Origin: Candidatus Poribacteria bacterium
Lineage (GTDB): Bacteria; Poribacteria; WGA-4E; WGA-3G
Direction of reading: 5' to 3'
Assembly (NCBI GenBank): GCA_965205015.1
Contig: OZ242029.1
Location: forward strand, 320,001-384,000
DNA: 64,000 bases
Shown: positions 31,670 to 48,401 of the stretch, one piece after another
How positions within the stretch are numbered: position 1 is the stretch's first letter
Layout of the letters: each line of letters opens with the position of its first letter
Position numbers and translations under genes: made by a program
The notes under the pieces: generated by a model
Told to the model about the DNA's origin: nothing
What the model saw: the letters and a program-made list of their open reading frames with translations, nothing else
Database searches by the model: none

Positions 31670-31709
31670 GTGATAGACCCAAGTCTAAAGACTTGGACTT
31701 CTGCAATCG

Positions 31710-32921
31710 TTATGCAGAAGCATTTGTGGATTTCAGAATCGGATGGTTGGATTCAACGGAGCAGCCTACGATCTTGTCAAACAAAACAATAGGACTTACA
31801 ACCCCTAAGCCAAAGGAAGCTATCCCTTCCTTAAGAATATTCAGCGCAGCGTTCTCGTCGCGGTCAAGGTGCGTATCGCAACTCGGACACCTCCAAGAAC
31901 GATCTGCTAACGTGAGGTTTTGATTTTTATGTCCACAAACACAACAGGCTTTGGTCGTCGGAGACCACCGATTGATTTTCAGCACGGAGCGAATACGCTT
32001 ATGAGACTGGTGCTTGAGTTTCCGCAGGAACTCACCAAACGCAAGATCCGAGACCTGTTTCCCCCACAAGCGTTTCATACCCGAAAGGTTCAGGTCTTCA
32101 AAGAACAGTATATCAAACTTACGACACAGTTCTATCGCCAGTTTCCAATGGTGATCTGTCCGTTGGTTCGCCGTTTTCTTGTGGATACGCGCAACGGTCT
32201 TGCGTTCGCGTTCTTGGTTGTTAGACCCTTTCACCTTACGGGAATACGCCTTTTGTGCTTCTGCTAACTTTTCAGCGTTCTGTTTGTAAAACATCGGAGA
32301 CGTATACCTATGACCATCACTGCCAATCAGAAAGTCCGTAATACCCATATCAAACCCTTCAGCTTTACCCGTCTTGGGTTCGATCTTGATTTCGGTATAG
32401 TCTTCTGTCAGCGTAATATACATATCTCCGAGCGCATCCCTCGTTACATGAACTTCGATGATGTGTCCCTCGATTTTACGATGCAGGGCGAAGCGATACC
32501 AACGTCCATTCAGTCGGATTTTATAGGTCGGGTGATTTCTTTGGTTTTTCTGCTTATCCAGGACTTTTTCAATCTTGACCTGTTCACCCCGAAACGTCAT
32601 CCCTTTGTGTTTCTTGCAAGACTTGAACTTTGGGTGACCTCTGCCAAGGGTTTTCATTTCTCTAAAGGATTGTGCCAAACGCTTTAGCACATTTTGCAAC
32701 GCCCAAGAGTAAGGGATATTCCAATGCTGATACTTCTCAAGTTTCTTCAGTTTCGTCAAATGTTTCGACAGTTTCGCATACGAAAGCCCTTTCCCATAGC
32801 GGCGGTAATATCGCATACAGAGTGCCAAAAAATGATTTTTCACAACACCACAGATATTGCAATCGTCGTGCAAGTGACGCAACGTCTTATCCTTGAAAAG
32901 TTTATGTTTTGTGTTTCGCAT
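31710..32921 (-). CDS. tnpB: TnpB RNA-guided endonuclease, apparently intact
   Basis: RuvC D/E/D: GFDMG, FFEDL, DRDENAALNI; Zn finger CCVC..CPSC. Confidence 0.93.
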   Translation of the reverse strand: MRNTKHKLFKDKTLRHLHDDCNICGVVKNHFLALCMRYYRRYGKGLSYAKLSKHLTKLKKLEKYQHWNIPYSWALQNVLKRLAQSFREMKTLGRGHPKFKSCKKHKGMTFRGEQVKIEKVLDKQKNQRNHPTYKIRLNGRWYRFALHRKIEGHIIEVHVTRDALGDMYITLTEDYTEIKIEPKTGKAEGFDMGITDFLIGSDGHRYTSPMFYKQNAEKLAEAQKAYSRKVKGSNNQERERKTVARIHKKTANQRTDHHWKLAIELCRKFDILFFEDLNLSGMKRLWGKQVSDLAFGEFLRKLKHQSHKRIRSVLKINRWSPTTKACCVCGHKNQNLTLADRSWRCPSCDTHLDRDENAALNILKEGIASFGLGVVSPIVLFDKIVGCSVESNHPILKSTNASA

Positions 32922-32963
32922 GGTTTATCAAGTCTCAAGTCTTTAACCCCTATACAGTGGGTG

Positions 32964-33050
32964 GGACCGACACGTAACCTTGCGGTTATGCTGTATATGT
33001 CGGTCCAACTTGATATTCTCATTATACCACACTTTCGGACCAAACGTCAA
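32964..33050 (-). promoter_or_regulatory. tnpB promoter and structured 5' leader (element A)
   Basis: TTGACG-N18-TATAAT with TG extension, then hairpin GGACCGACAT..AGCA-TAACC-GCAA-GGTTA-CGTGTCGGTCC. Confidence 0.65.
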
Positions 33051-33136
33051 GCAAAAAATGAACGCTTTGGTCCTTTCCAAGAGGGCGAGACTGTATCCCA
33101 AAGCTAAAGCATTGGGTTTTCGTCTCGGAAGTTTAG

Positions 33137-33300
33137 ATAAAGTGATTCTGCTCACACCATTTCAGGATTTCAGGGTCGGGTGTACCTCTTACGGGTGCCC
33201 CAGTATCGCCGATCATCCAAACTGTTAACGATGACTCATGGTGGAGTAACTGTGCGCGGTAGGTTGGTGGAACGTGCTCGTCTAACAAATACGCGGTCAT
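33137..33300 (-). pseudogene. DUF5615 PIN-like toxin, 5' part
   Basis: MTAYLLDEHV...GTPDPEILKWCEQNHFI. Confidence 0.85.
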
Positions 33301-33316
33301 CTTTGCCCTTGTTGTT

Positions 33317-33664
33317 CTATGAAGGCGAGGGTGTTGTACTTGGAGCACTACCCCGCGCTTCTGTTCTGAGTTCCCGCAGTCGAGCAACAACAGGCGGCAG
33401 ATTTTTCTCGTATTCCTCCCGTGCTGTTTGGCAGTACTGGAGATAGTCTGCTAAATATACCCCAACTTCTTCTCGATTTTGCAGGTAATACAGAATCGTC
33501 GCGTAGACCTGTTCCAATGTTAATGTCCGAAAACGTTCTGCAATTTGTTCAGGTGTTTGGGCACGGTGAATATATTCGTATAGCACACTCTCAATACCAA
33601 TGCGTGTACCTTTTATTCTTATATCATCCTCTGCCAAAAAGTTGAAGTATTCTTCAATTTGCAT
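33317..33664 (-). CDS. DUF433 antitoxin (VapB45-type)
   Basis: IRIKGTRIGIESVL...TPEQIAERFRTLTLEQVYATILYY. Confidence 0.88.
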   Translation of the reverse strand: MQIEEYFNFLAEDDIRIKGTRIGIESVLYEYIHRAQTPEQIAERFRTLTLEQVYATILYYLQNREEVGVYLADYLQYCQTAREEYEKNLPPVVARLRELRTEARGSAPSTTPSPS

Positions 33665-33793
33665 TTCCATCACTCCGTTTAGGGATAGTTTCTGTTTGCC
33701 GCGCTGCATACTCTCATGAATTGGACAGCATCAGTGAGCACCGATAATTATCATAGCATACATTAAGCAAGAACGTCAAGTGAATTAGGGGGA

Positions 33794-33906
33794 TAGGGGC
33801 ATTTGTCACGATCATTTAGTTTTCCGCTAGAACACACTCAAAGTCCCCTGATAAGGGGGATTTAGGGGGTTTTTTCATGCAGAAAAGCTAAAACTAAATA
33901 GCCCTG
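33794..33906. mobile_element. Degenerate MITE with ISAs1-like ends
   Basis: Right end aaaactaaatagccctg vs ISAs1 IR aaaactaaatacccctg; interrupted left end aggggc...atttagtttt; internal cccctgataagggggatttaggggg. Confidence 0.55.
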
Positions 33907-34013
33907 GGATTACCGGAACAGACCTTGCCACCCGTTCACGTATGTGATATAATATCCTATTCAATAGTGTCATCATCCGTGAGAAAAGGAACACCTTACA
34001 AGGAGCAAAATCT

Positions 34014-34187
34014 ATGAACACAAATCCTGCTGAAACGCCAGTTATCAGCGTCCCCGACGGTTCTATCCGTGATTATGTTGATGGAAAACCTCGCAAGGAC
34101 ACACCAGAAGAATATGTCCGCCAGACGATTGAGAAAAGATTAATCAATGAGCACAAATACAAACAGGAACGGATCAAAATAGAATAA
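34014..34187 (+). pseudogene. Truncated N-terminus of a restriction enzyme/N6-methylase (HSDR_N-like)
   Basis: AGGAG RBS; MNTNPAETPVISVPDGSIRDYVDGKPRKDTPEEYVRQTIEKRLINEHKYKQERIKIE*; TPEExVRQ motif. Confidence 0.65.
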
Positions 34188-34296
34188 GGTAATGGAATTG
34201 TATTTTTTAGCAGGAAGCATTGAGGGTGATTGATGAGAAGGTTATATATGCGCGGTAAAAATAGTAATTAAGAGGCACTGGGTAGGAGAGTATTCT

Positions 34297-35514
34297 ATGA
34301 AACTATTTTCTAAAATATGGTATTGGCTTGTAATAATAGCGGTCCTAACACTTGCAGCAGGTATAACAACTCTGTTTCCACAAATAGATGATGTTGCTGT
34401 ATCTGAGGAAACAAATTCGCCTGATAACACGAACGAGATTGATCTTACTACTAAAGCTGATCCTCAACAAGAGAATCCCGCCTCGCCCAGCACAATGGAA
34501 AATGTCCATCCTGCAACCAATGTTGAATTACAGCGTCTTTTCAATGATTTACGAAAGGAATATCTGGACACCCGAGAGGGGACAATCAATTGGTGGCTGC
34601 AGTTCATTACCATAGTTCTCGCCTTCTTCGGTATTGTTGTTGTAGTTTTAGGTTACTTTGGACTCCAAGAGTTTAAGAAACTTAAAGCTGAAGCGGAGAA
34701 AGATGCTGATGAAATAAAGAATCAGCTCTCTGAGGTACTGAAAAGCAGAGCGGAACTTGAGAGAGTCCGAGAGGAAGCGGAAACTAATGAAGCGAAGACA
34801 GAATCCGATGAAGCCATCCAGAGGACAAGGGAAACGTTCAGTGCTGAGGAATTCGCTACCCTCTCTGGTGACGAAGAATTCGAGAAAGTTCTGCAAGATT
34901 TTGAACAAATTCCCAATCTGTCTTTTATAGACAAGGCGACAGTTGAAGCGTACAAGTTGCAGAAAGATGGTAAAATTACAGAGGCAATCCAGAAGTGGCA
35001 TTCTATTGCTAATATCGTTGATGAAACTGATAAACACCTCGCTGCCCGCGCGTGGAGTTCTGTGGGATATCTCCTTTCAAAACAGGAACAAGCAGAAGAC
35101 GCAATTTCTGCTTATGACAAGGCAATAGAGATGAGAGCGGACTATGCCGAGGCTTACTACAGGCGAGGTACGCAAAGAATTAGTCTGAAACAATATTTAC
35201 CCGCTATGAACGACTTTGATCAGGCAATTAAGTTGAATTTTAATGCAGCCACTGCATACGTAGGTCGAGGGCTTGCGAGATTAGAACTCAATAAACGTGA
35301 TGATGCTTTTATTGACTTCGATAATGCCATTTCCATAGATCCAAATTATGCCAGTGCTTATGCTGTTCGGGGTGAGGCAAAAGTTTCCGAAAATGATATT
35401 GCAGGTGCAAAGTCGGATTTCCAGTCCGCATTGAACCTAGCAGAGAAACAGGGCAAAAACGAACTCAAAATTACCATAGAGGAAAGACTTCAAGAACTTA
35501 ATGAAATGGAATAG
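34297..35514 (+). CDS. Membrane-anchored TPR protein, paralog of 26519-27583
   Basis: Shared NDLRxEYLD..IN.WL..I.IVLAFF and AI..W.SIANI motifs; TPRs; ALNLAEKQG tail. Confidence 0.88.
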   Translation: MKLFSKIWYWLVIIAVLTLAAGITTLFPQIDDVAVSEETNSPDNTNEIDLTTKADPQQENPASPSTMENVHPATNVELQRLFNDLRKEYLDTREGTINWWLQFITIVLAFFGIVVVVLGYFGLQEFKKLKAEAEKDADEIKNQLSEVLKSRAELERVREEAETNEAKTESDEAIQRTRETFSAEEFATLSGDEEFEKVLQDFEQIPNLSFIDKATVEAYKLQKDGKITEAIQKWHSIANIVDETDKHLAARAWSSVGYLLSKQEQAEDAISAYDKAIEMRADYAEAYYRRGTQRISLKQYLPAMNDFDQAIKLNFNAATAYVGRGLARLELNKRDDAFIDFDNAISIDPNYASAYAVRGEAKVSENDIAGAKSDFQSALNLAEKQGKNELKITIEERLQELNEME

Positions 35515-35632
35515 AAATTTGCAGAGAATATGCGATATGATTCCGTAAACTTGAAAATATAATTTAAGTTGCAATTTTTTGCGAACAGATGTATAATTTA
35601 AATTATCTTTAATATATAAGGAGGGTAAACTG

Positions 35633-35839
35633 ATGTCTCGTCTGAAAACTGACTACATATTCTCCAGCGGAGCAAGCGGAACTGATAGTGAAAAAGCTCG
35701 TAAGGCAATTGAAGCGGTTCGGGAAGCAGTTCGGGTCTCAAGTAGAAGTCATACATCTGAAGTAGAGAAAGCAAAGGCAGCATACCTCAAAGCCCTCCAT
35801 GAGGCTGTGAAAAGATTCAGCCGTTCAAAACAACGCTAA
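35633..35839 (+). CDS. Small basic hypothetical protein
   Basis: AAGGAGG RBS; 68-aa helical ORF. Confidence 0.55.
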   Translation: MSRLKTDYIFSSGASGTDSEKARKAIEAVREAVRVSSRSHTSEVEKAKAAYLKALHEAVKRFSRSKQR

Positions 35840-35969
35840 TCATTAGCAGGACGAGTAGTTCTGTCTATCTTTTTTATTTTAAGATGTAGCGTGATATTTT
35901 AACACAATACGCCAAGCGTATCCCGGCAATCTTAAAATCTTGTAAATCCTGATTCTGACAATCCTCCCT

Positions 35970-36365
35970 TCAAAGCGGTTTCCCGAAACACAACACATAC
36001 CCGTCATGATCCTTGAGTTCAAACGCCCGGAGACCGTCATCCGTGTCCGCGAGGGGTTCGTGGAACACCAGTCCGCGGGACTCAAACTCAGCAAACAACA
36101 CATCAGGATCGGAAACCCAGATAAAAGCGTCCCATCTTGCCCACTCGTGCCGGGTATGATTGGGGACGGGATGAATATCTTTAGCGATATGTTTGAGCAG
36201 AATTCGCACGTCATCACGACTCACGATTCCAAAAAACGGATCTTCCTCCGGGATGAGGAGATCTGTCTCAAAACCGAGTTTCTGATTGTAAAAATCGATG
36301 GATGCCGCAAGGTCGTCTACAATAAAAAACGGATAAATTCTTTCAAGTTTCGTATCTTTTGCCAT
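35970..36365 (-). CDS. VOC/glyoxalase/bleomycin-resistance family protein
   Basis: VDDLAASIDFY..KLGF; LRAFELKDHDGYVLCFG. Confidence 0.85.
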   Translation of the reverse strand: MAKDTKLERIYPFFIVDDLAASIDFYNQKLGFETDLLIPEEDPFFGIVSRDDVRILLKHIAKDIHPVPNHTRHEWARWDAFIWVSDPDVLFAEFESRGLVFHEPLADTDDGLRAFELKDHDGYVLCFGKPL

Positions 36366-36649
36366 CGTCTATCTCTCCTTTTTTCCGTAATATCCTAACA
36401 GATTCCCACCCAGTATTCAACGCAGAAGATTCTCATGGAAAAGTCTTCCCAGTTTGGAGTCGTGCGATTCATCGCACGTTTTGAAAGTACAAGGGGCAAT
36501 CAATGGTTTCCCTACTACGAACCAATTAATCTGAAGTATGGAAAACTGAAGAGCCCTAAGGTCCCATAAAAGCACAGTTGACAAATCTACGCCCTCAGAG
36601 TATACTAACAACAACGACCACACTCTGAATTGAGGAAGGAACAGATTTC

Positions 36650-37609
36650 ATGGCAACCCTCAGATGGGGAATACTCGGTTGTGGAGATGTCGCTGAATAT
36701 AAGGGCGGCCCGCCCCTTTACAGCGTCGATGATTCGGAACTCATCGCCGTAATGCGACGGGACGGCGCCAAAGCGGAATCCTTTGCCGAGAGACACGGTG
36801 CAAAGCGATTCTATACCGATATAGACGACCTTCTATCCGATGACGAACTCAATGCAATCTACATTGCGACGCATCCATATCTCCACTGCGAACAGACCCT
36901 CCGTGTCGCAGCGGCAGGTAAGCATGTCCTCTGCGAGAAACCGATGGCGATGACGGTTGAAGAGTGCCAACGGATGGTGGATGCCTGCCACGCCGCAGGT
37001 GTCACCCTGATGCTCGCCTATTATCGCAATTTCTATCCGAATATCGTAAAAATGAAGGCACTGATGGATGAGGGTGCCATCGGGGACGTAGTGCTGGCAC
37101 GAATCAATCACACCGGTTTTTATGATCCGACTCGGCACGACCTGCATAGCTGGCGAGTGGATCCCAAAATCAGCGGCGGCGGTGTGCTGATGGACCTCGG
37201 GAGCCACCGTATCTCGCTCCTTCAGTATCTGATGGGGAAAGTTGAATCCGTGCAAGGTTACGCCGAGACAGTGCATCTGGACATTGAGGTCGATGATGCC
37301 ACGGCGTTTACGCTCCGTTTCAAGAGTGGGGCGCATGCCGTTGCGAACGTCAACTGGAACGTCGGTGTCTCGATTGACGATGTTGAGGTCTACGGCACGG
37401 AAGGGGCTTTAAGGTGTTCGCCGTTGAACAGTGGGAACCTGACGTTGGAAAAATCGGGTGAGCAGATTGAGATGGACCAGACACCGTTCCCTTACACACA
37501 CACGGGTCTTGTAGAGGACTTCGTCAACCACCTCAAGACGGGTGAACCGATCCGGTGTACGGGTGAATCGGGATTGCAGACGAATGCAATCATCGCGCAG
37601 ATAATGTAG
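36650..37609 (+). CDS. Gfo/Idh/MocA oxidoreductase
   Basis: WGILGCG, GKHVLCEKPMA, GGGVLMDLGSH. Confidence 0.92.
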   Translation: MATLRWGILGCGDVAEYKGGPPLYSVDDSELIAVMRRDGAKAESFAERHGAKRFYTDIDDLLSDDELNAIYIATHPYLHCEQTLRVAAAGKHVLCEKPMAMTVEECQRMVDACHAAGVTLMLAYYRNFYPNIVKMKALMDEGAIGDVVLARINHTGFYDPTRHDLHSWRVDPKISGGGVLMDLGSHRISLLQYLMGKVESVQGYAETVHLDIEVDDATAFTLRFKSGAHAVANVNWNVGVSIDDVEVYGTEGALRCSPLNSGNLTLEKSGEQIEMDQTPFPYTHTGLVEDFVNHLKTGEPIRCTGESGLQTNAIIAQIM

Positions 37610-37631
37610 AAGTGTTCTCAGGTTTGGGTGC

Positions 37632-37678
37632 GGTGCGGTGTTTTTGCTGGGGTGTTTCCCCAAGGAAACCGCACCTAC
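37632..37678. repeat. REP-like palindrome (GGTGCGGT...ACCGCACC-TAC) between convergent genes
   Basis: Same inner gtttttg..gggtgtttccc as 3822-3863 with compensatory stem changes; GTAG on the minus strand. Confidence 0.65.
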
Positions 37679-37687
37679 CGTTAGCGG

Positions 37688-38839
37688 TTAATTAATCCGT
37701 TCAGATTCCAACGTTAACCAGTCCCAATACGCCCTCGGCATCTCCGCAGGCGAATCCAACCCGGCTTCCTCACGCCACCGTAACAACGGATGCCGCCGAT
37801 CGGGTTGTGGAAGGTCAACGCTCGTGCCATACGCCGCTGATTCAAAGATACCCATCATCATCTCAATGATGTGTCGTCCCTCAGTGCCGCTGCACGTATG
37901 TGCTTTCCCTTCGTCCAAAGCATTGACATAATCCTCCACGAACCAATAATCCGCTTCCGACGCGCTACTTTCAGGATCGTAGTGCTCAGGATAGATAAGT
38001 TCCAACGCTTCCCACTGGTCGTGCGTACCGTCGGGAACATAGTGCGGTGTCGGTAGCCACCACGCCCCACCGAGTCCCCAGAAGAGCCGTCCTTCAGTGC
38101 CGTAAAGCTCCATCGTATATCCATTGGTATCCATTTTGTCAAAGCGGTGTTGAAGCAGGGTACCCGTGACATTGCCCTCATACTGCAACGTTGCCGTGAT
38201 ATATTCGCCTGCGATTGTCCCCATGCCACTCGGCGACGGCACAACATCTGTAGGCATGATCGGTTTTCCGCCCGTCGTCAGGTGTGCCGCAATACTCTGG
38301 CACCGTTTTCCGAAGTGGAGCATGTTGTTGAGCATGTGGGTACCGATGTTCATCAAGCCGTAACCGCCGTAGTAGCCTTTCCCACTGCCGTACATGTAGC
38401 GCAACTCCCCGATCTTCCCAGCATCAAAAGCCTGTGAGAGCGCCTGCATAGGCGCCCCGACTCTACCTTGGTGGTGGACGGCGACCTGTACGCCTTTTTC
38501 CTTCGCTTTAGCGATAACGGCATCCGCCTGCACGAGATCCACACACATCGGCTTTTCGACCTCAATATGGACGCCGTGTTCCAGCACACGCATGCACAGA
38601 TCGTAGTGGAATTCCGTGCCGGTGGGAATCGCCACAATGTCGGGTTGGGTCTGCCGAATCATCTCATCTAAATCGGTGAACCGTGCGGTGACGTTGACCT
38701 CTTCACCGAGCGTGTCGAGACGTTCTTCGACCAGATCACAGAGTCCGACAATCTCTGTGCGTGGATGCGCATGATATGCCCGTGCTGCCGCCGTCCCGCG
38801 TCCTCTACATCCCAAAATTCCGATCCGATATATTTTCAT
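37688..38839 (-). CDS. Gfo/Idh/MocA oxidoreductase
   Basis: IGILGCRGRG, VEKPM, LMNIGTH. Confidence 0.88.
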   Translation of the reverse strand: MKIYRIGILGCRGRGTAAARAYHAHPRTEIVGLCDLVEERLDTLGEEVNVTARFTDLDEMIRQTQPDIVAIPTGTEFHYDLCMRVLEHGVHIEVEKPMCVDLVQADAVIAKAKEKGVQVAVHHQGRVGAPMQALSQAFDAGKIGELRYMYGSGKGYYGGYGLMNIGTHMLNNMLHFGKRCQSIAAHLTTGGKPIMPTDVVPSPSGMGTIAGEYITATLQYEGNVTGTLLQHRFDKMDTNGYTMELYGTEGRLFWGLGGAWWLPTPHYVPDGTHDQWEALELIYPEHYDPESSASEADYWFVEDYVNALDEGKAHTCSGTEGRHIIEMMMGIFESAAYGTSVDLPQPDRRHPLLRWREEAGLDSPAEMPRAYWDWLTLESERIN

Positions 38840-38946
38840 AGCTCCCTCCTTTTCACATTTGATCGTCCTTGTATTCACCTGCCTACACTGTTGATGTTTC
38901 GCATTATATCATAATCCGTTTAACGGGTCAATGCCTTTGATTTCCC

Positions 38947-41900
38947 TTGACGCTGCTTCTTAAATCTGTTATCCTTTCAACAAAGCAACGGTTATTTTCA
39001 GATATATCCTTGCGTACTAATTCAAGGACTATTCTCGAACTCAGTCTTTCTCCACAAAGACCTTCCAAGTGCTTCGCGGCTTTGAACTATCACAGGTGGT
39101 TTGCAGTGAGTAACTTGACAAAATTCGTATCCATCTTAATTCTCTGTCTCATTATCACTCCCATCGAACCTTCTGTTGCCTCCGAGCACATAGAAACCTA
39201 TACGGTTGCCGACGGTCTTGTGGGTCCGATAGTCCCAGTTATCTTTCAGGACAGTCGAGGAACGCTTTGGTTCGGTTCTGATAGGGGCGGTGTCAGCCGT
39301 TTTGATGGTAACACTTTTGTGCCTTACAAGGCTGTCCCAATCGCTTCGGTGGAGACGACAGTAGCGGGGGTCCAATCCGGGGCACTGCTCGGATGGACGC
39401 GACACATTGCTGAAGATAAATGGGGACACATCTGGTTCCTTACCCGAGATGATTCAGAAACAATCGGTCAGGTCAGCCGTTTTGATGGCACTTCGATCCA
39501 ACGGATCGGAACCGGAAGGTGCTTCATTGTTGACAAGGCGGGCGACGTGTGGGTGAGTGAAAATCAGCGACTCACAAAATACGTTACCTCAGGGGTCCAA
39601 AAACCGCCAGAGGCGTATCAGCACGAGATTGGAAGCGAAGATCCACGCCAATCAACAGAAACATTGACAATAAACGTTATCTTTGAAAGCGAAGACGGAA
39701 CCCTCTGGCTTGCCGGTAGTGAAGGCACACAGGAAACAAGGACCGTAATTCTGAGTTTTCGTGAGACGCATCGACCAGACGAAAAACCCGGCGGTCGCGA
39801 CGTCCCAAATGATAAAACACGGCACCCGCAACCCAATATTGGATTCACGCGTTACAGTCCGCCTCCTATAGCGATTCCCATTGAGGCGGTAACGGAGGAC
39901 ACCGCCGGGAATCTTTGGTTCGGCGGCTATAATCTGCTCCTGAAGTTCGATGGACACACCTTTCAGCAGATCCTGCCTTTACGTTCAGCACAAAGTGGGG
40001 CTTGGCGGTATAGACCGCCGAGGCACGCCGCATTCCAAAAGGACACAAAAGGACGCCTCTGGTTTAGCGATGGTCGCATCACAAGATGGTGGGACGGTTC
40101 ACAACTGCAGATGCCCAGAAACATGCCAAGGATCCTTGAAATTGAGGACGCCTGGGGACATTTATGGTTTACGAACGAGAACGGCGAAGTCGAAAAATAC
40201 GACGCGACGCTTCAGCCAATTCCGTATAGTATCGACCATGGGCTTGATATTGACCGAATTCGGACGATTTTTGAGGCAATGAACGGTGAGTTGTGGTTCG
40301 GACATGACAACGGTGTAACAGTCTTTAACCCGAACCCCGCCATCCAAAATCACGGCACTGGCATCAGTCGTAACCTTAGACGGAAGTCACCTTCCACATT
40401 TTGGACAGATATCGTCAAAATATTTGAAGTTGGCAAATACATCTGGTTCATCAATAAACCGATATATGGTGAAAACGCGACGCGATATACCTTCTTCCGC
40501 TACGGAAACGACGCCTTCGATCAAGTTTCTATCTTTATCAAACCCCAAACGGGACGCCCCAGGAGACCTTCCGATAGGAATCCGAATCTATTTGTCACCG
40601 AAGGGGCACACCGATGGTTGGCTTTTGGCGGACACCTCTTCAAGGCGGACGCAGCAGGATTGTTATGGTTTACAAACCGATTCCAGAGAATCCCTTTTCA
40701 AACCTCCTTGGAAATTGATCATGCCGACTCCCCTATAAATGCCTTGCACACTGATGCCGACAAGTTATGGGTACTTTATGAGAATGGAAGAGTGCAGTCC
40801 TATCCAAAAAAGATTGGACCCGCAACGTCTCTAAATATTGAGCCAGAGACCCTTCCTTATCTGATTAAAGTAACAAAGATGTTCGAGATGCCCTCGGGCG
40901 CCAAATGGTTTTTTAACGCTGTGACAGGAAAGTTAATCCGGTGGAATGTCTCTGACCCGACGACACCGATTGTGCTGAAGGGGCAGTCCCGTGCCACCCC
41001 GATCGCCGCGTGGCAGGACCCAACAGCAAATCAAGCGGAAATTACGTTCCTCTTTCCGGACGCTCTCAAGAAATATCGGGACCAAGCGTTAATCACAACT
41101 GAAGACATTGAACTTGCTCCAGAAAACGTGTCCTTAATGACACAAGAAGGCGTCCTCTGGCTCGCGACCTCTCATGGCGCCGTTCGTTACGATGGAAACG
41201 AACTCACAGCGTATACAACCAAAAATACATCTCAGAATTCCAGAAAAGAGAGATTTCTCGTCGACAATGTGCGTGATGTCATTGAGGACAGTACCGGAAA
41301 TATATGGTTCGCAACAAAGGGCGGCGGCATCGTCCGATACGATGGCAAAACCTTTGACTCGCTCACCACAAAAGACGGTCTGGCGCATAACAATATCTCG
41401 AAAATTTATGAATCCGCTGACAAAGATATTTGGTTTGCCACCCAAGGCGGCGTTACACAATACACCCCAACGCGCGGCGGACTCCCTTTCTATCGACTCA
41501 CCGCCCTACAGGCTGATAAAACCTATACTGTCCTCTCATCGCGTATTAACTTACCCGTACGTGGCAACAAGCATATCCGCTTCTACGTGCGAGGCACCAG
41601 TCCGCTCCGACAACAGCTCTCCTATGAATTTAAAATTATCGGGGTGGATGGTCCCGGTTGGACTAAACTGTCAGCGGCGGAGTTCTCACTTTTGCCCACA
41701 GGTTCCGGGGACTCCTCTGACGAATGGTTTCCTGCATCGGAATTGGAAACGCAACAAGCCACGCATCATCACGGTGTCCAACACGGATTTCAAAACCGCG
41801 ATGGGATTCTCTGTATACGATATACGGGTCTTAAAGCCGGCACCTATAGCTTCATCGTCAAGGCGTTCCGTAAAGACTGGCCCTACACGCATCCACCCGC

Positions 41901-42810
41901 CGTGGTCGACTTTAGCATCCCATCCCCCTTCTGGGTGCAGTGGCGAACCTATCTCCCTACACTCATCTTCACGATCATTGTCCTTGCGCTCATTGCCCGC
42001 TTGGTTATCAGCCGAAGGCACACCGCGCAGCTGCGCAACGAAATGTTGCAAAGGGAGGCGGCGGAGATACAACGCATCCGCGCGGAACTCGACGAGGCAC
42101 AAAACATTCAGATCGGGCTACTCCCCACGGAATCCCCCGATATAAAAGGGTTTGATATTGCCGGGATGTCAGTCCCAGCAACGCAGGTGGGCGGCGATTT
42201 TTACGATTACCTGACGGTTGAAAATGGGCATACCGCTATTGCAGTCGCAGATGCCGCAGGCAAAGGATTACGCGGGGCTATGAATGCCGTGCTCACGAAC
42301 GGAATGCTACACGAAGTTGCCAGATTCAGATCCGACGCAGACGCGATCCTCACCGACCTCAATATAGGATTAGCACCCCGGATGTACGGTCCCAGTTTCA
42401 TCGCGCTGAACTTGGCAATTCTCAATGCATCCAATAAACGTATTGACTACGCCAACGGCGGTCAACCCTACCCGATTCTCAAAAGAAGCACAGAAATTAT
42501 TGAAATTGAGAATAGTGATCTGCCCCTCGGTGGTATGAAAAGCGTTCAATATGAATCTACCGCTTTCGATTTAACGGAAGGTGATATGCTGATCTTCCAT
42601 TCCGACGGTCTCATTGAAGCCCTCAACCCCAACGAAGAAATGTACGGTGCTGAACGTTTAATAGCAGTGGTGTCCCAAATACCAAACGAATACACCGCTG
42701 AGGAAGCGATCCAACACATCGTGGAAGACGTGAATAAATTTGTTGAGGCGGCAGAACAGTATGATGATTTAACGCTTGTTGTCATCAAACGTATCGCTGC
42801 CTCCTCGTAG
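38947..42810 (+). CDS. Beta-propeller sensor with C-terminal SpoIIE/PP2C phosphatase
   Basis: QDSRGTLWFG and DGLAHN propeller repeats, TM helix, VGGDFYD, ADAAGKG, SDGLIEA, DDLTLV; true start may be about 39106. Confidence 0.88.
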   Translation: MTLLLKSVILSTKQRLFSDISLRTNSRTILELSLSPQRPSKCFAALNYHRWFAVSNLTKFVSILILCLIITPIEPSVASEHIETYTVADGLVGPIVPVIFQDSRGTLWFGSDRGGVSRFDGNTFVPYKAVPIASVETTVAGVQSGALLGWTRHIAEDKWGHIWFLTRDDSETIGQVSRFDGTSIQRIGTGRCFIVDKAGDVWVSENQRLTKYVTSGVQKPPEAYQHEIGSEDPRQSTETLTINVIFESEDGTLWLAGSEGTQETRTVILSFRETHRPDEKPGGRDVPNDKTRHPQPNIGFTRYSPPPIAIPIEAVTEDTAGNLWFGGYNLLLKFDGHTFQQILPLRSAQSGAWRYRPPRHAAFQKDTKGRLWFSDGRITRWWDGSQLQMPRNMPRILEIEDAWGHLWFTNENGEVEKYDATLQPIPYSIDHGLDIDRIRTIFEAMNGELWFGHDNGVTVFNPNPAIQNHGTGISRNLRRKSPSTFWTDIVKIFEVGKYIWFINKPIYGENATRYTFFRYGNDAFDQVSIFIKPQTGRPRRPSDRNPNLFVTEGAHRWLAFGGHLFKADAAGLLWFTNRFQRIPFQTSLEIDHADSPINALHTDADKLWVLYENGRVQSYPKKIGPATSLNIEPETLPYLIKVTKMFEMPSGAKWFFNAVTGKLIRWNVSDPTTPIVLKGQSRATPIAAWQDPTANQAEITFLFPDALKKYRDQALITTEDIELAPENVSLMTQEGVLWLATSHGAVRYDGNELTAYTTKNTSQNSRKERFLVDNVRDVIEDSTGNIWFATKGGGIVRYDGKTFDSLTTKDGLAHNNISKIYESADKDIWFATQGGVTQYTPTRGGLPFYRLTALQADKTYTVLSSRINLPVRGNKHIRFYVRGTSPLRQQLSYEFKIIGVDGPGWTKLSAAEFSLLPTGSGDSSDEWFPASELETQQATHHHGVQHGFQNRDGILCIRYTGLKAGTYSFIVKAFRKDWPYTHPPAVVDFSIPSPFWVQWRTYLPTLIFTIIVLALIARLVISRRHTAQLRNEMLQREAAEIQRIRAELDEAQNIQIGLLPTESPDIKGFDIAGMSVPATQVGGDFYDYLTVENGHTAIAVADAAGKGLRGAMNAVLTNGMLHEVARFRSDADAILTDLNIGLAPRMYGPSFIALNLAILNASNKRIDYANGGQPYPILKRSTEIIEIENSDLPLGGMKSVQYESTAFDLTEGDMLIFHSDGLIEALNPNEEMYGAERLIAVVSQIPNEYTAEEAIQHIVEDVNKFVEAAEQYDDLTLVVIKRIAASS

Positions 42811-42835
42811 CCAAGCCGTAAAAATTTAAGGGCTT

Positions 42836-44092
42836 TTACGGTGTTCGTTTAAGACTTGCCCAAGTGCCGACTCGCTTGCGTTTGACCGCACTCGGGGCCG
42901 CCGGAGCCGGTTGCTCGTAGAACCCGGGAGACCCCATGTCTTCCCGATGTCCATAGTAATAAACCTCCGGGGGCGACTCGCTTGGGACCACCTGATAAGA
43001 GACACGCGCCTTGTTCTGATGGAGCGGTGCCACCGGATCCCCGAACGCACTAAAAGCCTCCCTACCGAGACGGTGAATCTCTGCGCCATCGGCATCCGTC
43101 AATACCCACCCGCGTTTGAGGACGTTGTCTATGTTCAAGTTGTAGACCTGTGTTGCTTCTATCCCGGAAAATCGCCAAGCTGGGAGGTGTCGGGTGGATA
43201 GAATCGCGACACCGTCCCCTGGGATGCTGAACCCGTCCTGTGTTCCAGCGAGCGTCAGCGTATGGACTTTATGGGGGGCGGTGGCAGACCGTCGGGTGGC
43301 GTATTGGAACGTGTAGCCTTTGAGGTTGACGGTTTCCTCGGTGTTGGGGTTATACACCTCAATCCACTGTGGTAATCCACTACTCCCAGCAGACCAATCT
43401 CTGACCATATACTCTGTTATGCGTATGGGTAATAAAGGTTGACGCTCGGGTTGTGTTTCTGGTGTACCCTCAAGAACTGTTCCGTATTTTTGTTGGGCTC
43501 TGAGGAAATCTTGTTCTGTGCTTGTGTCAACAGGGGTGCCGCTATCACCTGCTTCGGATGTCCCTTCAGGGGTGCCACTCTCCTCTACTGCCGGGGGTGC
43601 CCCGCCTCCGCCCCCTACTGTTGGAATCGGCGTTTCCGTTGGATTTTGCATTGGAGTCGTTCGCGTGCCGACGTTAGAGTGGTCGTCATCCACGGTGTGC
43701 GGATCACTGTGCGTGTCCAATGGACTCGTGTGAGAGTGTGTCCCTGTATGCGTGTGCGACACGTAGTTGCCATGTTTGTGGGCAGGAAAGGTATGCTGAT
43801 GCTCAGTTTCGGTTAAAATGCCACCGTCGAATGTCTCCCGCATACGCAGGACCCCACTTGTTCTCAGTTCATCTGCAGTATACTCCACTTTGTACACATG
43901 AACGTGGACACCATCTTCATTCTCATTTTTTTCTATGGTAACCCCAGGATCGCTCAACCTTTTGGGGGTCTCTTTCCCACTCTCTGGATGACGCAGTGTA
44001 ACTATGAGCATGTCGGCGGGGGGATCGTGTGCAAACACGGATGCAACACTGACGAACACACAGAGAATTGATAAAATGCTGAATCTAAACAT
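42836..44092 (-). CDS. Secreted lamin-tail-domain protein with His-rich and Pro/Thr-rich regions
   Basis: Signal peptide; IRITEYM..PQWIEVYNP..VNLKGY..GSPG; C-terminal GTWASLK. Confidence 0.7.
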   Translation of the reverse strand: MFRFSILSILCVFVSVASVFAHDPPADMLIVTLRHPESGKETPKRLSDPGVTIEKNENEDGVHVHVYKVEYTADELRTSGVLRMRETFDGGILTETEHQHTFPAHKHGNYVSHTHTGTHSHTSPLDTHSDPHTVDDDHSNVGTRTTPMQNPTETPIPTVGGGGGAPPAVEESGTPEGTSEAGDSGTPVDTSTEQDFLRAQQKYGTVLEGTPETQPERQPLLPIRITEYMVRDWSAGSSGLPQWIEVYNPNTEETVNLKGYTFQYATRRSATAPHKVHTLTLAGTQDGFSIPGDGVAILSTRHLPAWRFSGIEATQVYNLNIDNVLKRGWVLTDADGAEIHRLGREAFSAFGDPVAPLHQNKARVSYQVVPSESPPEVYYYGHREDMGSPGFYEQPAPAAPSAVKRKRVGTWASLKRTP

Positions 44093-44308
44093 TGTAAGTT
44101 TCTGCTCCTTTAGGTTTGGTGAACCTATGGATAGATGTACCTGAATTTGCGGATGCTGCTAAGTTCTACATCTATTAGGACTTACACACGATGTTCTTTT
44201 GTAGCATAACCTGTTAGGTTGTGCATCTCAAGGCACAAACAGAATCTCTACAGAAAAGGTCACATTTTTCTTAGAGGCGACCCGGCACTTACGCGACAAG
44301 ACCGAGGT

Positions 44309-45199
44309 CTATTTTCGGCGGGACAGGTACTCAGACAGCGCATAGTCGAACGGCGTGGCGGTATCCATCTGAACGTAATCGATCTGGCTCGCGCCACATC
44401 CGCGACGGTAACTCTGAATGAACTGATTCAATTTTTCAAGATAATCCGCTTTCAGCGTATCCGCCTGCGTTGAAAGCGTCTGCCCGGTTTCCATATCCCG
44501 AAAGACGACAGAACCGGTATACGGGAAGGTAAGTTCGGCAGGATCGAGTAGATGGAAAACGATGACCTCATGCTTCTGATGACGAAGGTGTTTCAGGGCA
44601 GAGATGACCTGCGAGGGTTCGTCAAGTAGATCGGAAATGACGATCACCAAACCCCGTCTCACAATCCGTTTGGCGAGTTCGTGGAACAGACCGCTCAACT
44701 CGGTCTCTTGACCGGGCGTAGCACTTTCCAAAGCGGACATAATCGCTCGTAGATGCGTGGCGGCACCCCTCGGCGGAATGTATTGCGTAATCTCCGTGTC
44801 AAAGAGCGCTAAACCGACAGAGTCGCGCTGTTTCAGCATCAGATAGGTAAGCGTCGCGGCGAGATAACAGCCGTATTCAAACTTCGTCAATCCCTCCGCT
44901 GCGTGTTTATAGTTCATCGACGCACTCGTATCAAGCAGGATATAGGCGCGGAGGTTCGTCTCCTCTTCAAACTTTTTGACGTAATACCGATCCGATTTCC
45001 CGTAGACTTTCCAGTCGATATAACGGATCTCATCGCCGGGCATATACTGCCGGTGTTCGGCGAACTCTACGCTGAACCCTTGATAGGGACTTTTGTGCAA
45101 CCCGGTGACGAACCCCTCAACGACAAGCCTCGCCACGAGTTCCATACCGCCAATTCGAGAGAGTGCAACTGGGTCTAAGTATTTATGAGATGTCTGCAT
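44309..45199 (-). CDS. DUF58 (vWA-like, MoxR-associated) protein
   Basis: GLHKSPYQGFSVEFAEHRQYMPGDEIRYIDWK, KFEEET, LDTSASM. Confidence 0.92.
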   Translation of the reverse strand: MQTSHKYLDPVALSRIGGMELVARLVVEGFVTGLHKSPYQGFSVEFAEHRQYMPGDEIRYIDWKVYGKSDRYYVKKFEEETNLRAYILLDTSASMNYKHAAEGLTKFEYGCYLAATLTYLMLKQRDSVGLALFDTEITQYIPPRGAATHLRAIMSALESATPGQETELSGLFHELAKRIVRRGLVIVISDLLDEPSQVISALKHLRHQKHEVIVFHLLDPAELTFPYTGSVVFRDMETGQTLSTQADTLKADYLEKLNQFIQSYRRGCGASQIDYVQMDTATPFDYALSEYLSRRK

Positions 45200-45214
45200 A
45201 TTTCTTTTACTGGA

Positions 45215-45487
45215 TCACTTAAAAACGGCGATCGAACGGTCCTCATGGACAATATCGTCTATAAAATACAAGCGTTCTTCATCATCCATAGCGTCCCAAT
45301 CTAACCCACGCTCGGTGCATAATTGCCGGACCTTTGATTCGGCATACTTCATTCGCTTCTCGCGTTCTGCTGGTGTTTCCTTTGTAAGTGCGCGAACAAC
45401 CAAGAATTTTTCTTCGGGTGGCATTTGCTGAACTAAATCAATGATCTGTTCAGTAGTTAATTCAATAGTCAAATTCATGAGATTCAC
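45215..45487 (-). CDS. Small hypothetical protein (antitoxin-like size), cut off from its RBS and promoter by an IS
   Basis: ELTTEQIIDLVQQMPPEEK...RGLDWDAMDDEER. Confidence 0.6.
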   Translation of the reverse strand: MNLMNLTIELTTEQIIDLVQQMPPEEKFLVVRALTKETPAEREKRMKYAESKVRQLCTERGLDWDAMDDEERLYFIDDIVHEDRSIAVFK

Positions 45488-45575
45488 CTAAGTTTACGGA
45501 TTGGAGGTTTCCCAAACTTTTAAGTTTGGGAGGAAAATCCGCCCTCTTGGAAAGGACCAAAATGTTTATTTTCCC

Positions 45576-45660
45576 TTGACACTTGGTTCGAAATTGTGGT
45601 ATAATATTAGTATCGTGTTGGCAGACATGTTTAGCATTACCGCTTGGTAATGTGTCTGCC
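45576..45660 (+). promoter_or_regulatory. tnpB promoter and structured 5' leader (element B)
   Basis: TTGACA-N18-TATAAT; hairpin GGCAGACAT..AGCA-TTACC-GCTT-GGTAA-TGTGTCTGCC. Confidence 0.65.
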
Positions 45661-45701
45661 TCCCACTAAGCAGGGGATAAATACACGATACACGATATAC
45701 C

Positions 45702-46970
45702 ATGAAATTAACCTTTGAATATCCTGTGTATCCAACACAGACCCAGGAAGAAACTTTATTAGGATGGACCTGACCATCTCTGTGAACTTCAGAACTCTGC
45801 GCGCAACAATCGCAAACATGCGCATGAGACAGAAGGTCGTTTTGTTTCGCGATATGACCAGGAACAACTCTTGAAGGGTGCCCGTGAGAAATATGACGAT
45901 TTTCGCCAAGTCCCTCAAGATTTCCAAGTGTCTATCCTCAAACGTGTTGACAGGGCCTTTGATGCCTTCCGTAAGCGGTGTAAAGAAGGAGCAGAGAAAA
46001 AAGGGTATCCTCGCTACAAAATGCGTGTGCGTTCTCTGACGTGGTGCTTGCGAAAGCATAAACGCAAAACAGGTGAACGTGTCCGCCAAAATCCGATACG
46101 AGAAACCACATGGAAACACGACCGTTTGAAAGTGCCGAAACTCGATGAAATCAAGATATACATGCACCGTCCGCTTCAAGGCGATCCGAAAGAAGTGACA
46201 CTCGTGAAAAAAGCAAGTGGCTGGTATGCACATATCACTTGTGAACTACCTGACACTCCAAAGGTTGAACCAACAGATGCGATTGCGGTTGATGTTGGCA
46301 CGACACACTATCTGACGACTTCCGAAGGTGAAAAGGAAGAGAATCCGCGTTGGTATCGCCAAGCAGAAGGTTTGCTCCGAAAACACGCGAAAGACCTATC
46401 GCGTAAAAAGTTAGGTAGCAACCGAAGAAAGAAACAACAACACAAACTCGCTTTACACCATGAACGAACCGCGAACAAACGCAAAGACTTTATCGGTAAA
46501 CTCGTCTACAAACTCTATCATCATCTAAAAAACAACGTCCTTATCGCTGAAGACCTCAGCGTATCTAACATGGTTCAGAATAAACACCTCAGCAAGAGCA
46601 TCAGCGATGCATCTTGGGCAAAGTTCTTTCAGTGGGCTGGAAACATAGTTCCGAAAGAGACGGTTTCCACTTCCACCAAGTCGATCCTAAGAACACTTCG
46701 CAAATCTGCTCTGCCTGCGGTAAGAAGTCGCCCAAGAAACTCTCTTTAGCGATACGCACCTTTGATTGTAGTTTTTGTGGCACGGTTTTAGACCGAGACC
46801 ACAACGCTGCGATAAACATACTTTTACGGGCGGCTTGCGCCCTTCGTGGAGAGCGTTGGGTTACCGACCTCTATGAAGCGAGAAACACCAACGAAGCACG
46901 AGACACGGGCTTTGAGACTGCTGAACAACTGCTGTTGTTTAACGACCTCTTAACAAGCCCAAGTCTTTAG
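45702..46970 (+). pseudogene. tnpB: TnpB with two frameshifts
   Basis: MKLTFEYPVYPT start shifts frame near 45768; AVDVG and IAEDL in the 45871 ORF; second shift near 46650 into TSQICSAC..DRDHNAAINI. Confidence 0.85.
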
Positions 46971-47006
46971 GCTTGGGTACATTGACCTCCTAAATCCTGA
47001 AATTCA

Positions 47007-47054: not shown

Positions 47055-48401
47055 CAGGGGTATTCAGTTTTCGGTTTTTTCGTAATATTTTTCACATCTG
47101 TTAATATTATAAAATAAACAGATACAGCGTGACTTTTCCCGCTGTATCTGCTATACTTCACCGTAAAAAACCATCACATTTTTTGAGGTGAATCATGACA
47201 AGAAGTTCCTCTTGCCACTTACTTGACATATTAGCAGAAGTTCCGGATCCACGCCATAAAAAAGGGAAACGCTACAACTTGGGGTCTATCCTTGCGCTGC
47301 TCGTCATCGGTGTAATGTCGAATCATAAAGGGTATACGTCTATAGCGACTTGGGCACGGCATCAAGGGGCCCTGGCAAAAGCGTTAGGTTTCAAATCAGA
47401 GAAGACCCCGTGTGCTGGAACGCTTCATAATCTTTTGAAGCGTCTTGACGTCGTGAGTCTCGAAGCCTTACTCACGAAATGGGTGTTTTCAAAACTTGAA
47501 AGTCTTCAAGTTTTGAAAACACAGGATTTACAAGGGGTGGCGATAGATGGCAAAGAGTTATGTGGCTCCAAAGACCCAGAAACCCGATACCGCACACATT
47601 TACTCTCCGCTGTCTCTCATGAGTTAGGGATTACCCTTACACAGCGGGCTGTCAGTGGAAAAACAAATGAGATCCCCATCTCAACGCAACTTCTGAAAAC
47701 CTTTGATGTCACCGGGAAAGTCATAACAACAGATGCACTTTTGACCCAAAGAACCTTTTGTAAAGAGGTTCTCAAATATCACGCAAACTATGCAATGCCC
47801 GTCAAAGAGAATCACAAACAGATGTATCACGACATTCGCGAACTCTTTGAACCGCTTTCGGAGACAGACACACCACACGTCCAAGCACGACGGTTTCAGA
47901 ACCTACACACCGAGGCAGACGCACACCTTGATACCCACACAGACGTTGAAACATCACACGGGTTTATCACCACACGCACGCTAACAGCAAGCACACTCTT
48001 GACGGATTATATCAACTGGCCAGGACTCGCACAAGTGTATCAATACCAATCCAAGCGGGAGAATACCAAAACAGGCAAGACTACCTACCAGACGCAGTAT
48101 GGCATCACGAGTCTTACACCACAAGACGCATCCGCAGAAACTTTGCTCAAACTCCGACGCCAACACTGGACGATAGAAAACAAAGTCCATTGGGTGCGAG
48201 ATGTCGTCCTCGGGGAGGACGCTTCACAAGCAAGAACAGGGAGACTCCCACAAGTCATGGCTGCCCTACGCAACACTGCCCTGGCTCTCTTACGCTTTGA
48301 CGGACACACAAAAATTGCGGAAACACTGCGATTTTTCGCTGCAAAACCTAAACTCGCAGTTAAACTCATACAGTGACAAAACTTAAAACTAAATACCCCT
48401 G
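47055..48401 (+). mobile_element. ISAs1-family IS, copy 2 (1347 bp)
   Basis: Same IRs and protein as copy 1; own 10-bp TSD GTAAATTCAT at 47045-47054 and 48402-48411. Confidence 0.95.
47195..48376 (+). CDS. ISAs1 transposase
   Basis: Translation identical to 29782-30963. Confidence 0.95.
   Translation: MTRSSSCHLLDILAEVPDPRHKKGKRYNLGSILALLVIGVMSNHKGYTSIATWARHQGALAKALGFKSEKTPCAGTLHNLLKRLDVVSLEALLTKWVFSKLESLQVLKTQDLQGVAIDGKELCGSKDPETRYRTHLLSAVSHELGITLTQRAVSGKTNEIPISTQLLKTFDVTGKVITTDALLTQRTFCKEVLKYHANYAMPVKENHKQMYHDIRELFEPLSETDTPHVQARRFQNLHTEADAHLDTHTDVETSHGFITTRTLTASTLLTDYINWPGLAQVYQYQSKRENTKTGKTTYQTQYGITSLTPQDASAETLLKLRRQHWTIENKVHWVRDVVLGEDASQARTGRLPQVMAALRNTALALLRFDGHTKIAETLRFFAAKPKLAVKLIQ

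Follow-up and report, generated by a model that had tools for sequence, protein, structure and literature searches.

A pseudoknotted leader RNA between promoter and tnpB in IS200/IS605 transposons of Candidatus Poribacteria

Two transposons of the tnpB-only type, called A and B here, lie in a 64,000-nucleotide (nt) stretch of the genome of a Candidatus Poribacteria bacterium (assembly GCA_965205015.1, contig OZ242029.1, positions 320,001 to 384,000 of the forward strand; the whole stretch, numbered from its first letter, is referred to as the window). In both, the leader of about 95 nt that extends from the promoter to the tnpB ATG is predicted to form the same RNA fold, which is a three-way junction made of a closing helix (P0), a helix P1 stacked on a helix P2, a hairpin (P3) and a kissing pseudoknot. 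Covariation among homologous leaders makes it almost certain that this fold is real. It is shared by dozens of related elements of Poribacteria, which are sponge symbionts, and it is missing from Rfam.

The P0 helix pairs a strand located 5-7 nt downstream of the -10 box with a word of 7-8 nt close to the ATG, and its onset falls at or within 1-2 nt of the predicted transcript start. The 3' strand of P0 is present in two tandem copies, the second of which ends 5-6 nt before the AUG. P2 contains 7 base pairs (bp) and P3 is a short, invariant CCC/GGG hairpin with a 9-nt loop. The 7 nt between P1 and P2 pair with the P3 loop to form the 7-bp pseudoknot helix. An A-rich linker (UAAA) runs from P3 back to P0, and the junction strands are very short (1, 0-1 and 5-6 nt). 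An earlier description of the window, made from its letters alone and called the sequence-only reading below, had proposed a stem-bulge-stem at 32964-33006 in A and at 45620-45660 in B. It placed both stems correctly. They are P1 and P2, and they form only a part of the larger junction with P0, P3 and the pseudoknot. The AGCA that was taken for a conserved unpaired bulge is a misreading, as the 7 nt between P1 and P2 pair with the spacer in the P3 loop and the C that follows them opens P2. The motif CCCACT..AGGGG, noted downstream of the stems, is present in both elements; it is itself the P3 stem, and the spacer inside it is the pseudoknot strand.

Relatives of the two elements were collected by scanning a species-representative genome collection for an exact 17-mer of the 22-nt box that precedes the promoter in both A and B. 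The scan returned 73 loci (identified below by L numbers where necessary), 56 of which belong to Candidatus or uncultured Poribacteria and all have the same left-end layout. The other 17 come from unrelated organisms and have nothing in common beyond the 17-mer. Together with the two window copies, the 56 loci give 58 left ends. Because the scan required an exact 17-mer, invariance of the box is built into the collection and relatives with a diverged box are under-sampled. Such relatives were met only by chance, in flanks, in two cases (L020:4600-4810 and L039:640-900, minus strand), and both carry the leader.

The main alignment, built with MAFFT, contains 36 leaders (35 distinct), each taken from the -10 box to the ATG. 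Of its 1155 pair cells, 96.7% are paired. Compensatory changes, which had been reported for both stems on the strength of A and B, are borne out on the larger set: 22 of the 33 pairs are changed on both sides. None of 500 column shuffles reached any of five pairing measures, and pairing falls to 29-45% when the partners are slid by 1-3 columns. P3 has a fourth pair, split over columns by MAFFT, and its covariation is perfect: 17 of the 36 leaders have A-U there and the other 19 have U-A. G-U cells outnumber A-C cells 69 to 6, which indicates that it is the sense strand that folds. The covariation check on collected leaders, suggested by the sequence-only reading, thus gave a strong signal, on the sense strand only, with nothing comparable among the 500 shuffles. 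The leaders of A and B have minimum free energies of -32.4 and -33.7 kcal/mol, respectively, with a z score of -4.0 in both cases; for either leader, none of 200 shuffled sequences was as stable.

A covariance model was built on the nested helices alone, with the pseudoknot left out. Within the window it detects only the leaders of A (102.3 bits, E 5.8e-25) and B (116.5 bits, E 6.2e-29). With default filters it found four places outside its seed, namely L020:4703-4809 (102 bits, with a diverged box), L004, L039:665-767 and L044. With the filters off it additionally found L067, L024, L042, L025 and L052, at E values from 6e-7 to 0.02 and each right after a -10 box. An alignment of 22 sequences that includes the divergent ones, fitted to the model and therefore leaning towards it, has 97.7% of its cells paired and double changes in 23 of 26 pairs. 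The pseudoknot helix, from the bulge to the P3 loop, is a contiguous 7-8 bp in all 22 sequences, in some of them with unrelated sequence. The divergent copies, including derivatives that do not code for a protein, keep every helix with unrelated sequences. Two observations weigh against the fold or against the force of the counts. The P1 halves are partly mismatched in four of the 36 leaders (L010, L054, L016 and L073), and P0 is mismatched in L037. Furthermore, all the sequences come from one phylum and many are related, so that the cell counts overstate the number of independent events.

The leader belongs to a left end whose order is common to A (33135 to 32922, minus strand) and B (45488-45701, plus strand): palindrome, box, promoter, and leader up to the tnpB ATG. 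The left ends had been called colinear, and they align over 267 columns with a mean column identity of 81%. The identical sequence reported in both is the 22-nt box CGCCCTCTTGGAAAGGACCAAA. An 18-mer taken from the box occurs twice in the window against 0.06 occurrences expected, and none of 100 shuffles gave two. The inverted repeat described over the -35 box is real: within the promoter spacer, TTTGGTCC repeats the box half GGACCAAA in inverted orientation. In the diverged copy at L020, a single case, another complementary pair (AGGCG/CGCCT) occupies the inverted-repeat site across the -35 region. The promoters, given earlier as TTGAC(G/A)-N18-TATAAT, are near-consensus sigma-70 promoters in both elements (11 of 12 positions in A and 12 of 12 in B). 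At the same offset from the box, 55 of the 58 family left ends have a promoter with at least 10 of 12 consensus positions, and 44 have at least 11.

The terminal hairpin of the left end is two-tiered, with an outer helix of 6-7 bp around an inner palindrome. The outer helix covaries among subfamilies (CGAGAC/GTCTCG, CGGATT/AATCCG, GGTGTC/GACACC, CGGTTTT/AAAACCG, CGGAAT/ATTCCG and CGGGCA/TGCCCG), and the target word (TTATC, TTCAC, TTTAC or TCAAG) shifts together with it. On the bottom strand, the box of B (45541-45557, minus strand) forms a terminator-like hairpin followed by GGATTTTCC. A function of the box as a bottom-strand terminator was considered and rejected. The terminator-like site was found on B only; since the T-run is missing in A and at many related loci, it is probably no general feature.

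A and B are transposons of the IS200/IS605 type that carry only tnpB, and their family is abundant in genomes of Candidatus Poribacteria. Subterminal imperfect palindromes are present at both ends of both elements, there are no terminal inverted repeats, and insertion has taken place 3' of a short target word, with TTATC or TTCAC left flanks recurring across loci. The end sequences of A (..GGGTCTATCAC) also delimit related elements at other loci. There is no tnpA inside A or B, the left end leading straight into tnpB, and a tblastn search with the annotated TnpA of L077 as the query found no homologue in the window or in L001-L073. TnpB of A matches Pfam families PF01385 (1.9e-17) and PF07282 (3.2e-17). 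Its residues 26-372 align with the solved chains of ISDra2-type TnpB (8bf8, 8exa and 8h1j; E 3e-47), and the aligned DxG, EDL and DRDENAA stretches are all there. Both tnpB elements of the sequence-only reading are thus present, although the tnpB of B is a pseudogene. It contains an in-frame stop, and its reading frame shifts at least twice, once near 45765 and once somewhere from 46600 to 46749; its last frame stops at 46970, within the loop of the right-end palindrome. It matches PF01385, the last frame aligns with the C-terminal part of A, and intact relatives exist at other loci. The decayed B keeps its ends, promoter and leader intact, and its leader outscores that of the intact A in the covariance model (116.5 versus 102.3 bits). 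The two proteins are as different as had been stated, with 28% identity over 260 aligned residues. The right end of A is presumed to be the 3' scaffold region of the guide RNA. The coordinates of all these features are collected in Table 1.

Table 1. Features of elements A and B in the window. Leader segments are listed in the 5' to 3' direction of the element.
Feature	Position	Strand	Remarks
Element A	31670..33135	minus	complete tnpB-only IS200/IS605 element (IS1341-type); ends read directly
Insertion site of A	33140-33136		element lies 3' of TTATC
A left-end DNA structure	33086..33127	minus	outer helix CGAGAC/GTCTCG around imperfect palindrome 33116-33097
A box	33066..33087	minus	CGCCCTCTTGGAAAGGACCAAA, 22 nt
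A promoter	33021..33050	minus	TTGACG-18-TATAAT, extended TG, 11/12 consensus
A leader RNA	32922..33015	minus	P0 5' strand 33015-33008
A leader, P1 and P2		minus	P1 33006-32998 with 32972-32964; P2 32990-32973
A leader, pseudoknot		minus	32997-32991 (TATACAG) with 32957-32951 (CTGTATA)
A leader, P3 and linker		minus	P3 32962-32959 with 32949-32946; linker TAAAG 32945-32941
A leader, P0 3' strand		minus	copy 1 32940-32933; copy 2 32933-32926
A tnpB	31710..32921	minus	intact, 403 amino acids, OrfB_IS605 and TNB domains
A right end	31670..31719	minus	stem-loop CTTCTGCA..TGCAGAAG across stop codon
A right end, palindrome and terminus		minus	palindrome 31696-31679; terminal TCTATCAC 31677-31670
Element B	45488..46986	plus	complete ends and decayed tnpB
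Insertion site of B	45483-45487		element lies 3' of TTCAC
B left-end DNA structure	45497..45541	plus	outer helix CGGATT/AATCCG around palindrome 45511-45530
B box	45540..45561	plus	CGCCCTCTTGGAAAGGACCAAA, identical to A
B promoter	45576..45605	plus	TTGACA-18-TATAAT, extended TG, 12/12 consensus
B leader RNA	45611..45701	plus	P0 5' strand 45611-45618
B leader, P1 and P2		plus	P1 45620-45627 with 45653-45660; P2 45635-45652
B leader, pseudoknot		plus	45628-45634 (TGTTTAG) with 45666-45672 (CTAAGCA)
B leader, P3 and linker		plus	P3 45661-45664 with 45674-45677; linker 45678-45682
B leader, P0 3' strand		plus	copy 1 45683-45689; copy 2 45690-45697
B tnpB pseudogene	45702..46970	plus	ATG 45702, in-frame stop 45771-45773
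B right end	46958..46986	plus	palindrome 46958-46977 and terminal TACATTGAC

The 29 intact TnpB proteins found behind leaders fall into four clusters at 55% identity, with 13, 1, 13 and 2 members. One pair of clusters is 48-54% identical and the others are 22-41% identical. The leaders, in contrast, are 47-88% identical across the clusters, which is as high as within them. A and L006 have proteins that are 82% identical but leaders that are only 70% identical, while the leader of A reaches 87% identity with leaders from a different protein cluster. Several leaders are mosaic: L010, L054, L016 and L073 combine P1 strands of two different variants, and L037 has a P0 5' strand that fails to match its partners. 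Tips of the left end and target words vary by subfamily (TTATC, TTCAC/TTCAT, TTTAC, TCAAG), whereas the box, promoter and leader are common to all. The comparison supports the view that left end, promoter and leader would make up one module that recombines freely with different tnpB/guide-RNA cargos. The exchange of tnpB cargo between common ends, proposed earlier from A and B, is supported by such leaders, shared across TnpB clusters that are mostly 22-41% identical.

The family also includes short non-coding derivatives of roughly 300-650 nt from end to end (L024, L025, L044, L042/L053/L072, L052, L015/L047 and L051). Apart from L051 they have retained promoter, leader and a 3' scaffold that resembles a guide RNA and is that of a single TnpB clade. 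In L024, L025, L044 and the L042 group, nothing but the left end, these three parts and their junctions makes up the element. Between L024 and L044 there are compensatory changes in P0, P2 and the pseudoknot, and the P0 duplicate is partly decayed in the non-coding derivatives. Since these derivatives keep the fold, control of TnpB translation cannot be its sole role. In L051, a deletion joins the box to the 3' part of tnpB; both ends are kept, and there is neither a promoter nor a leader.

At L015, L047, L038, L056, L066, L023, L071 and L011, this left end and promoter are followed by a second, different 5' RNA motif. Its closing helix comes immediately behind the -10 box, and beyond the helix lies an internal loop that carries conserved GGUUG and (U/C)GUAAAG on opposite sides. 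The motif is not matched by the covariance model of the first type. In L023 a 3' strand is duplicated in this second type too (CCTCATA twice).

The catalogues and the literature were searched for a description of the leader. None of the 4227 models of Rfam 15, which include IS605-orfB-I (RF03065) and HEARO, matched the leader or the right end at gathering score in the window and 20 related loci; the only gathering-score matches in these loci were two tRNAs in L005. With E values up to 10 allowed, the leader of A had no match, and the leader of B gave five noise matches of 11.7-19.9 bits against thresholds of 44-80. The Rfam comparison that the sequence-only reading had asked for, IS605-associated motif included, therefore yields no already described motif that matches the leader. 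Literature searches returned no description of a structured tnpB 5' leader and no paper combining Poribacteria with TnpB. In the accessible part of a survey of TnpB and Cas12 (PMC10691335), the guide RNA is placed downstream of tnpB and the leader is not mentioned. In a plasmid collection, the 236-nt leader query of A had no match at E 1e-3 in the distant mode of blastn. A tblastn search of the same collection with TnpB of A retrieved 3979 records, all below 60% identity and at most 41.8% among the 30 matches listed. Upstream of six tnpB loci from other phyla (Geoalkalibacter, Trichormus, Chroococcidiopsis, two of Nostoc, and Rhodothermus) the fold was not found, the best model match being 11.9 bits (E 0.37); from this small sample, the fold does not appear to be general to tnpB.

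At the left end, the leader occupies the interval from the promoter to the ATG and is, as had been claimed, separate from the omega RNA/reRNA of the right end. Both are structured, contain a pseudoknot, belong to the same elements and are kept in non-coding derivatives. The omega RNA/reRNA, however, lies at the 3' end of tnpB, at the right end. The leader occupies the opposite end; its sequence bears no resemblance to that RNA and does not follow the division of TnpB into clades. The sequence-only reading had called the leader a conserved cis-regulatory or accessory RNA of the tnpB 5' untranslated region (UTR). The conserved, structured RNA stands, and the cis-regulatory part is still inferred.

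The favoured reading, to which a probability of about 0.45 is given, is that the leader would act as an RNA domain at the 5' terminus, protecting the long transcript of tnpB and guide RNA and keeping translation of the nuclease low. The strong left-end promoter would start the transcript, the first 95 nt or so of which would fold. As the fold begins where the promoter predicts the RNA start, the 5' end would be buried in P0 by a knotted, rigid structure. The buried end would shield the tnpB/guide-RNA transcript, or the guide-RNA precursor in the non-coding derivatives, from decay that depends on the 5' end. Translation of TnpB would be low, as the start region lacks a Shine-Dalgarno sequence and can enter P0 through its second register. 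The net effect would be abundant guide RNA, made from the strong promoter, and little nuclease. Because one leader type serves four TnpB clusters with differing right-end scaffolds, the partner of the leader could not be clade-specific; the domain would act in cis on host machinery that is common to all the elements. The second leader type, which likewise opens with a closing helix after the -10 box, lends support to a role beyond translation.

Several points weigh against protection of the transcript as a full account. The start site and the effects on stability and translation are all predicted. A simple 5' hairpin would suffice to protect an end, and the three-way junction, the kissing loop and the invariant CCC-A..G-GGG-UAAA hint at a specific recognition that this model does not need. 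The model does not account for the duplicated P0 3' strand. Finally, occlusion of the start region by the second copy may be minor, because P0 is mostly predicted on the first copy.

The duplicate is highly conserved. Of 38 leaders, 31 have it as a perfect 7+7 tandem and six with one mismatch; only L067 lacks it. L067 is also the sole leader with GGAG before the ATG. Both copies covary equally with the 5' strand, with 93.2% and 92.9% of the cells paired. When the 36 leaders are folded with 30 nt of the open reading frame (ORF), P0 forms on copy 1 with a mean probability of 0.74 versus 0.09 for copy 2; folds of the bare leaders of A and B choose copy 2 instead. The second register spans positions -6 to -13, and its predicted occupancy is low in most leaders. 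Shine-Dalgarno-like motifs precede 19 of the 30 long ORFs in the window and there is none at tnpB of A. A third copy of the P0 7-mer was not found consistently in the element body or the right end. Pairing of the start region with the first codons was also considered and set aside: its predictions were only sporadic and clade-specific, with no covariation.

A closing helix that may slide between the two P0 registers is the most interesting possibility for the duplicate. In an extended form, the leader may be a functional RNA of a new class and more than a passive hairpin: a knotted 5' module whose closing helix slides between two identical registers, as a switch or a nuclease-resistant cap. 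It would set the amounts of guide RNA and TnpB made by each transposon copy, and unrelated RNA-guided nucleases would exchange it as a cassette that also includes the promoter and left end. This extended proposal is considered doubtful.

A related but unlikely explanation is a sensing switch, in which the junction would bind a small ligand or a host protein as an aptamer, with the two P0 registers as an expression platform that exposes or hides the start region. The helices vary while the junction and loop nucleotides (CCC, A, G, GGG, UAAA) are invariant, as in riboswitches, and the equal covariation of the two registers and the conserved tandem duplicate suit such a platform. The plan of the leader, with a closing helix and two arms held side by side by a tertiary contact, is that of the purine riboswitch and the hammerhead. 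Their junction strands and conserved nucleotides differ from those of the leader, in which the contact is a 7-bp helix between loop and bulge. The junction strands of the leader leave little room for a pocket, no Rfam riboswitch matches, and no sense-strand terminator-like site was found after the leader of A or B. Moreover, the fold and the partly decayed duplicate persist in the non-coding derivatives, where there is nothing to translate.

Persistence of the fold in the same derivatives would suit a trans-acting small RNA, which would be cut from the transcript and act on host or transposon targets like the processed 5'tnpA RNA of IS200 (bioRxiv 10.1101/2024.06.26.600842, available in part). 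The fold is compact, stable and autonomous, and stands behind a strong promoter. In the available part of that report, the IS200 RNA is one conserved sequence acting on host regulons, whereas the paired sequences of the leader differ among copies in one genome and the leader is not known to be processed. Helix and loop sequences vary so freely among such copies that there is no conserved seed, and the conserved single strands are all very short. A trans-acting role is quite improbable for the leader.

Retention in derivatives that carry only the guide RNA would equally suit a processive antitermination RNA, which would modify RNA polymerase to read through the poorly translated tnpB as far as the right-end guide RNA. 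The model for such an RNA is put of phage HK022. The fold lies directly downstream of the promoter, the ORF lacks a Shine-Dalgarno sequence, and the guide scaffold is about 1.2 kb downstream. No Rfam antiterminator family matches the leader, and the argument is purely positional, which makes antitermination very unlikely.

The three remaining explanations are the least probable. A self-cleaving or processing ribozyme is hardly credible: the knotted topology is firmly established, it presumably resembles a permuted pistol or hepatitis delta virus (HDV)-like layout, in topology only, and other mobile elements are known to carry ribozymes at their 5' ends, but no Rfam ribozyme family matches at E up to 10, the dinucleotide at the P2/P1 junction varies in divergent members (G|U, G-A-G, A|U, G|C), and few nucleotides are conserved family-wide. 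Hammerhead, HDV-like and pistol readings of the leader were each set aside, their junction lengths and conserved cores not fitting. A structure of the top strand in single-stranded DNA, used in TnpA-mediated excision and integration, would agree with the movement of IS200/IS605 elements as single strands recognised through DNA hairpins, with the location of the fold on the same strand as the end palindromes and with its retention in derivatives that need only transposition and maintenance. This is extremely unlikely, as the fold starts exactly at the promoter-predicted RNA start, at least 130 nt from the element tip, its 69 G-T/G-U cells of 1155, its 3-4 bp stem and its kissing loop would be weak in DNA, and L051 has both ends yet no promoter or leader. 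A decoy that mimics the guide RNA and binds TnpB for autoregulation would make use of the known ability of TnpB to bind structured, pseudoknotted RNA and to process its own mRNA; it is scarcely tenable, as the same leader serves four TnpB clusters 22-41% identical with different 3' scaffolds, leader and right end have no sequence similarity, and the element body has no consistent further copies of the P0 7-mers.

Protection of the transcript combined with low translation of TnpB, the favoured reading, has its nearest precedent in the 5'UTR of IS200 tnpA. In the available text of Ellis, Trussler and Haniford (2015, PMC4513863), an mRNA structure represses tnpA translation, beside an antisense RNA and Hfq. 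IS200 belongs to the same transposon superfamily, and in both cases an RNA structure lies in the leader of the element's own gene; in IS200 it lowers expression. The present leader differs from that account in that it precedes tnpB, consists of a three-way junction with a kissing pseudoknot and a duplicated closing strand, involves no Shine-Dalgarno sequence, and persists without an ORF. Other RNA motifs adjoin orfB or tnpB of the IS605 type, as the leader does, and those of Rfam named in the accessible part of PMC11701678 are IS605-orfB-I (RF03065), HEARO (RF02033) and sRNA-Xcc1 (RF02221); the leader matches none of them. A functional RNA in the left part of a tnpB-carrying element is known from the group I introns of IStrons, at the left end of IS605/IS607-type elements. 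In the available part of their description (10.64898/2026.03.11.711047), these introns have lengths of several hundred nt and remove the whole element from host transcripts by splicing. The leader is only about 95 nt long, has its own promoter and shows no intron features.

The surroundings of the two elements contain other mobile DNA. Two copies of a DDE_Tnp_1 (IS4-like) insertion sequence are located at 29642-30963 and 47055-48376 of the window. They are identical over the 300 nt compared, and their 393-amino-acid ORFs have identical Pfam scores. The second copy starts 69 nt past the right end of B. Upstream of A there is an ORF of 85 amino acids (33133-33390, minus strand) whose TAA stop is made by the first three bases of the transposon left end, so that the insertion of A probably truncated it. 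It follows a DUF433 gene (33317-33709), has no Pfam match, and may be the partner of that gene in a toxin-antitoxin-like pair.

TnpB elements are the ancestors of Cas12 and are under development as compact genome editors. Work on their RNA has so far centred on the right-end guide RNA, and literature searches gave no account of another structured RNA, located at the left end. Together, left end, promoter and leader would constitute a portable cassette. If the leader stabilises or throttles transcripts, it could serve as an expression part, being small (about 95 nt) and well defined. The covariation signal of the fold is unusually strong. For the transposons themselves, the occurrence of the fold in at least four TnpB lineages and in non-coding derivatives points to a layer, hitherto unrecognised, that may control the supply of transcript, guide RNA or nuclease.

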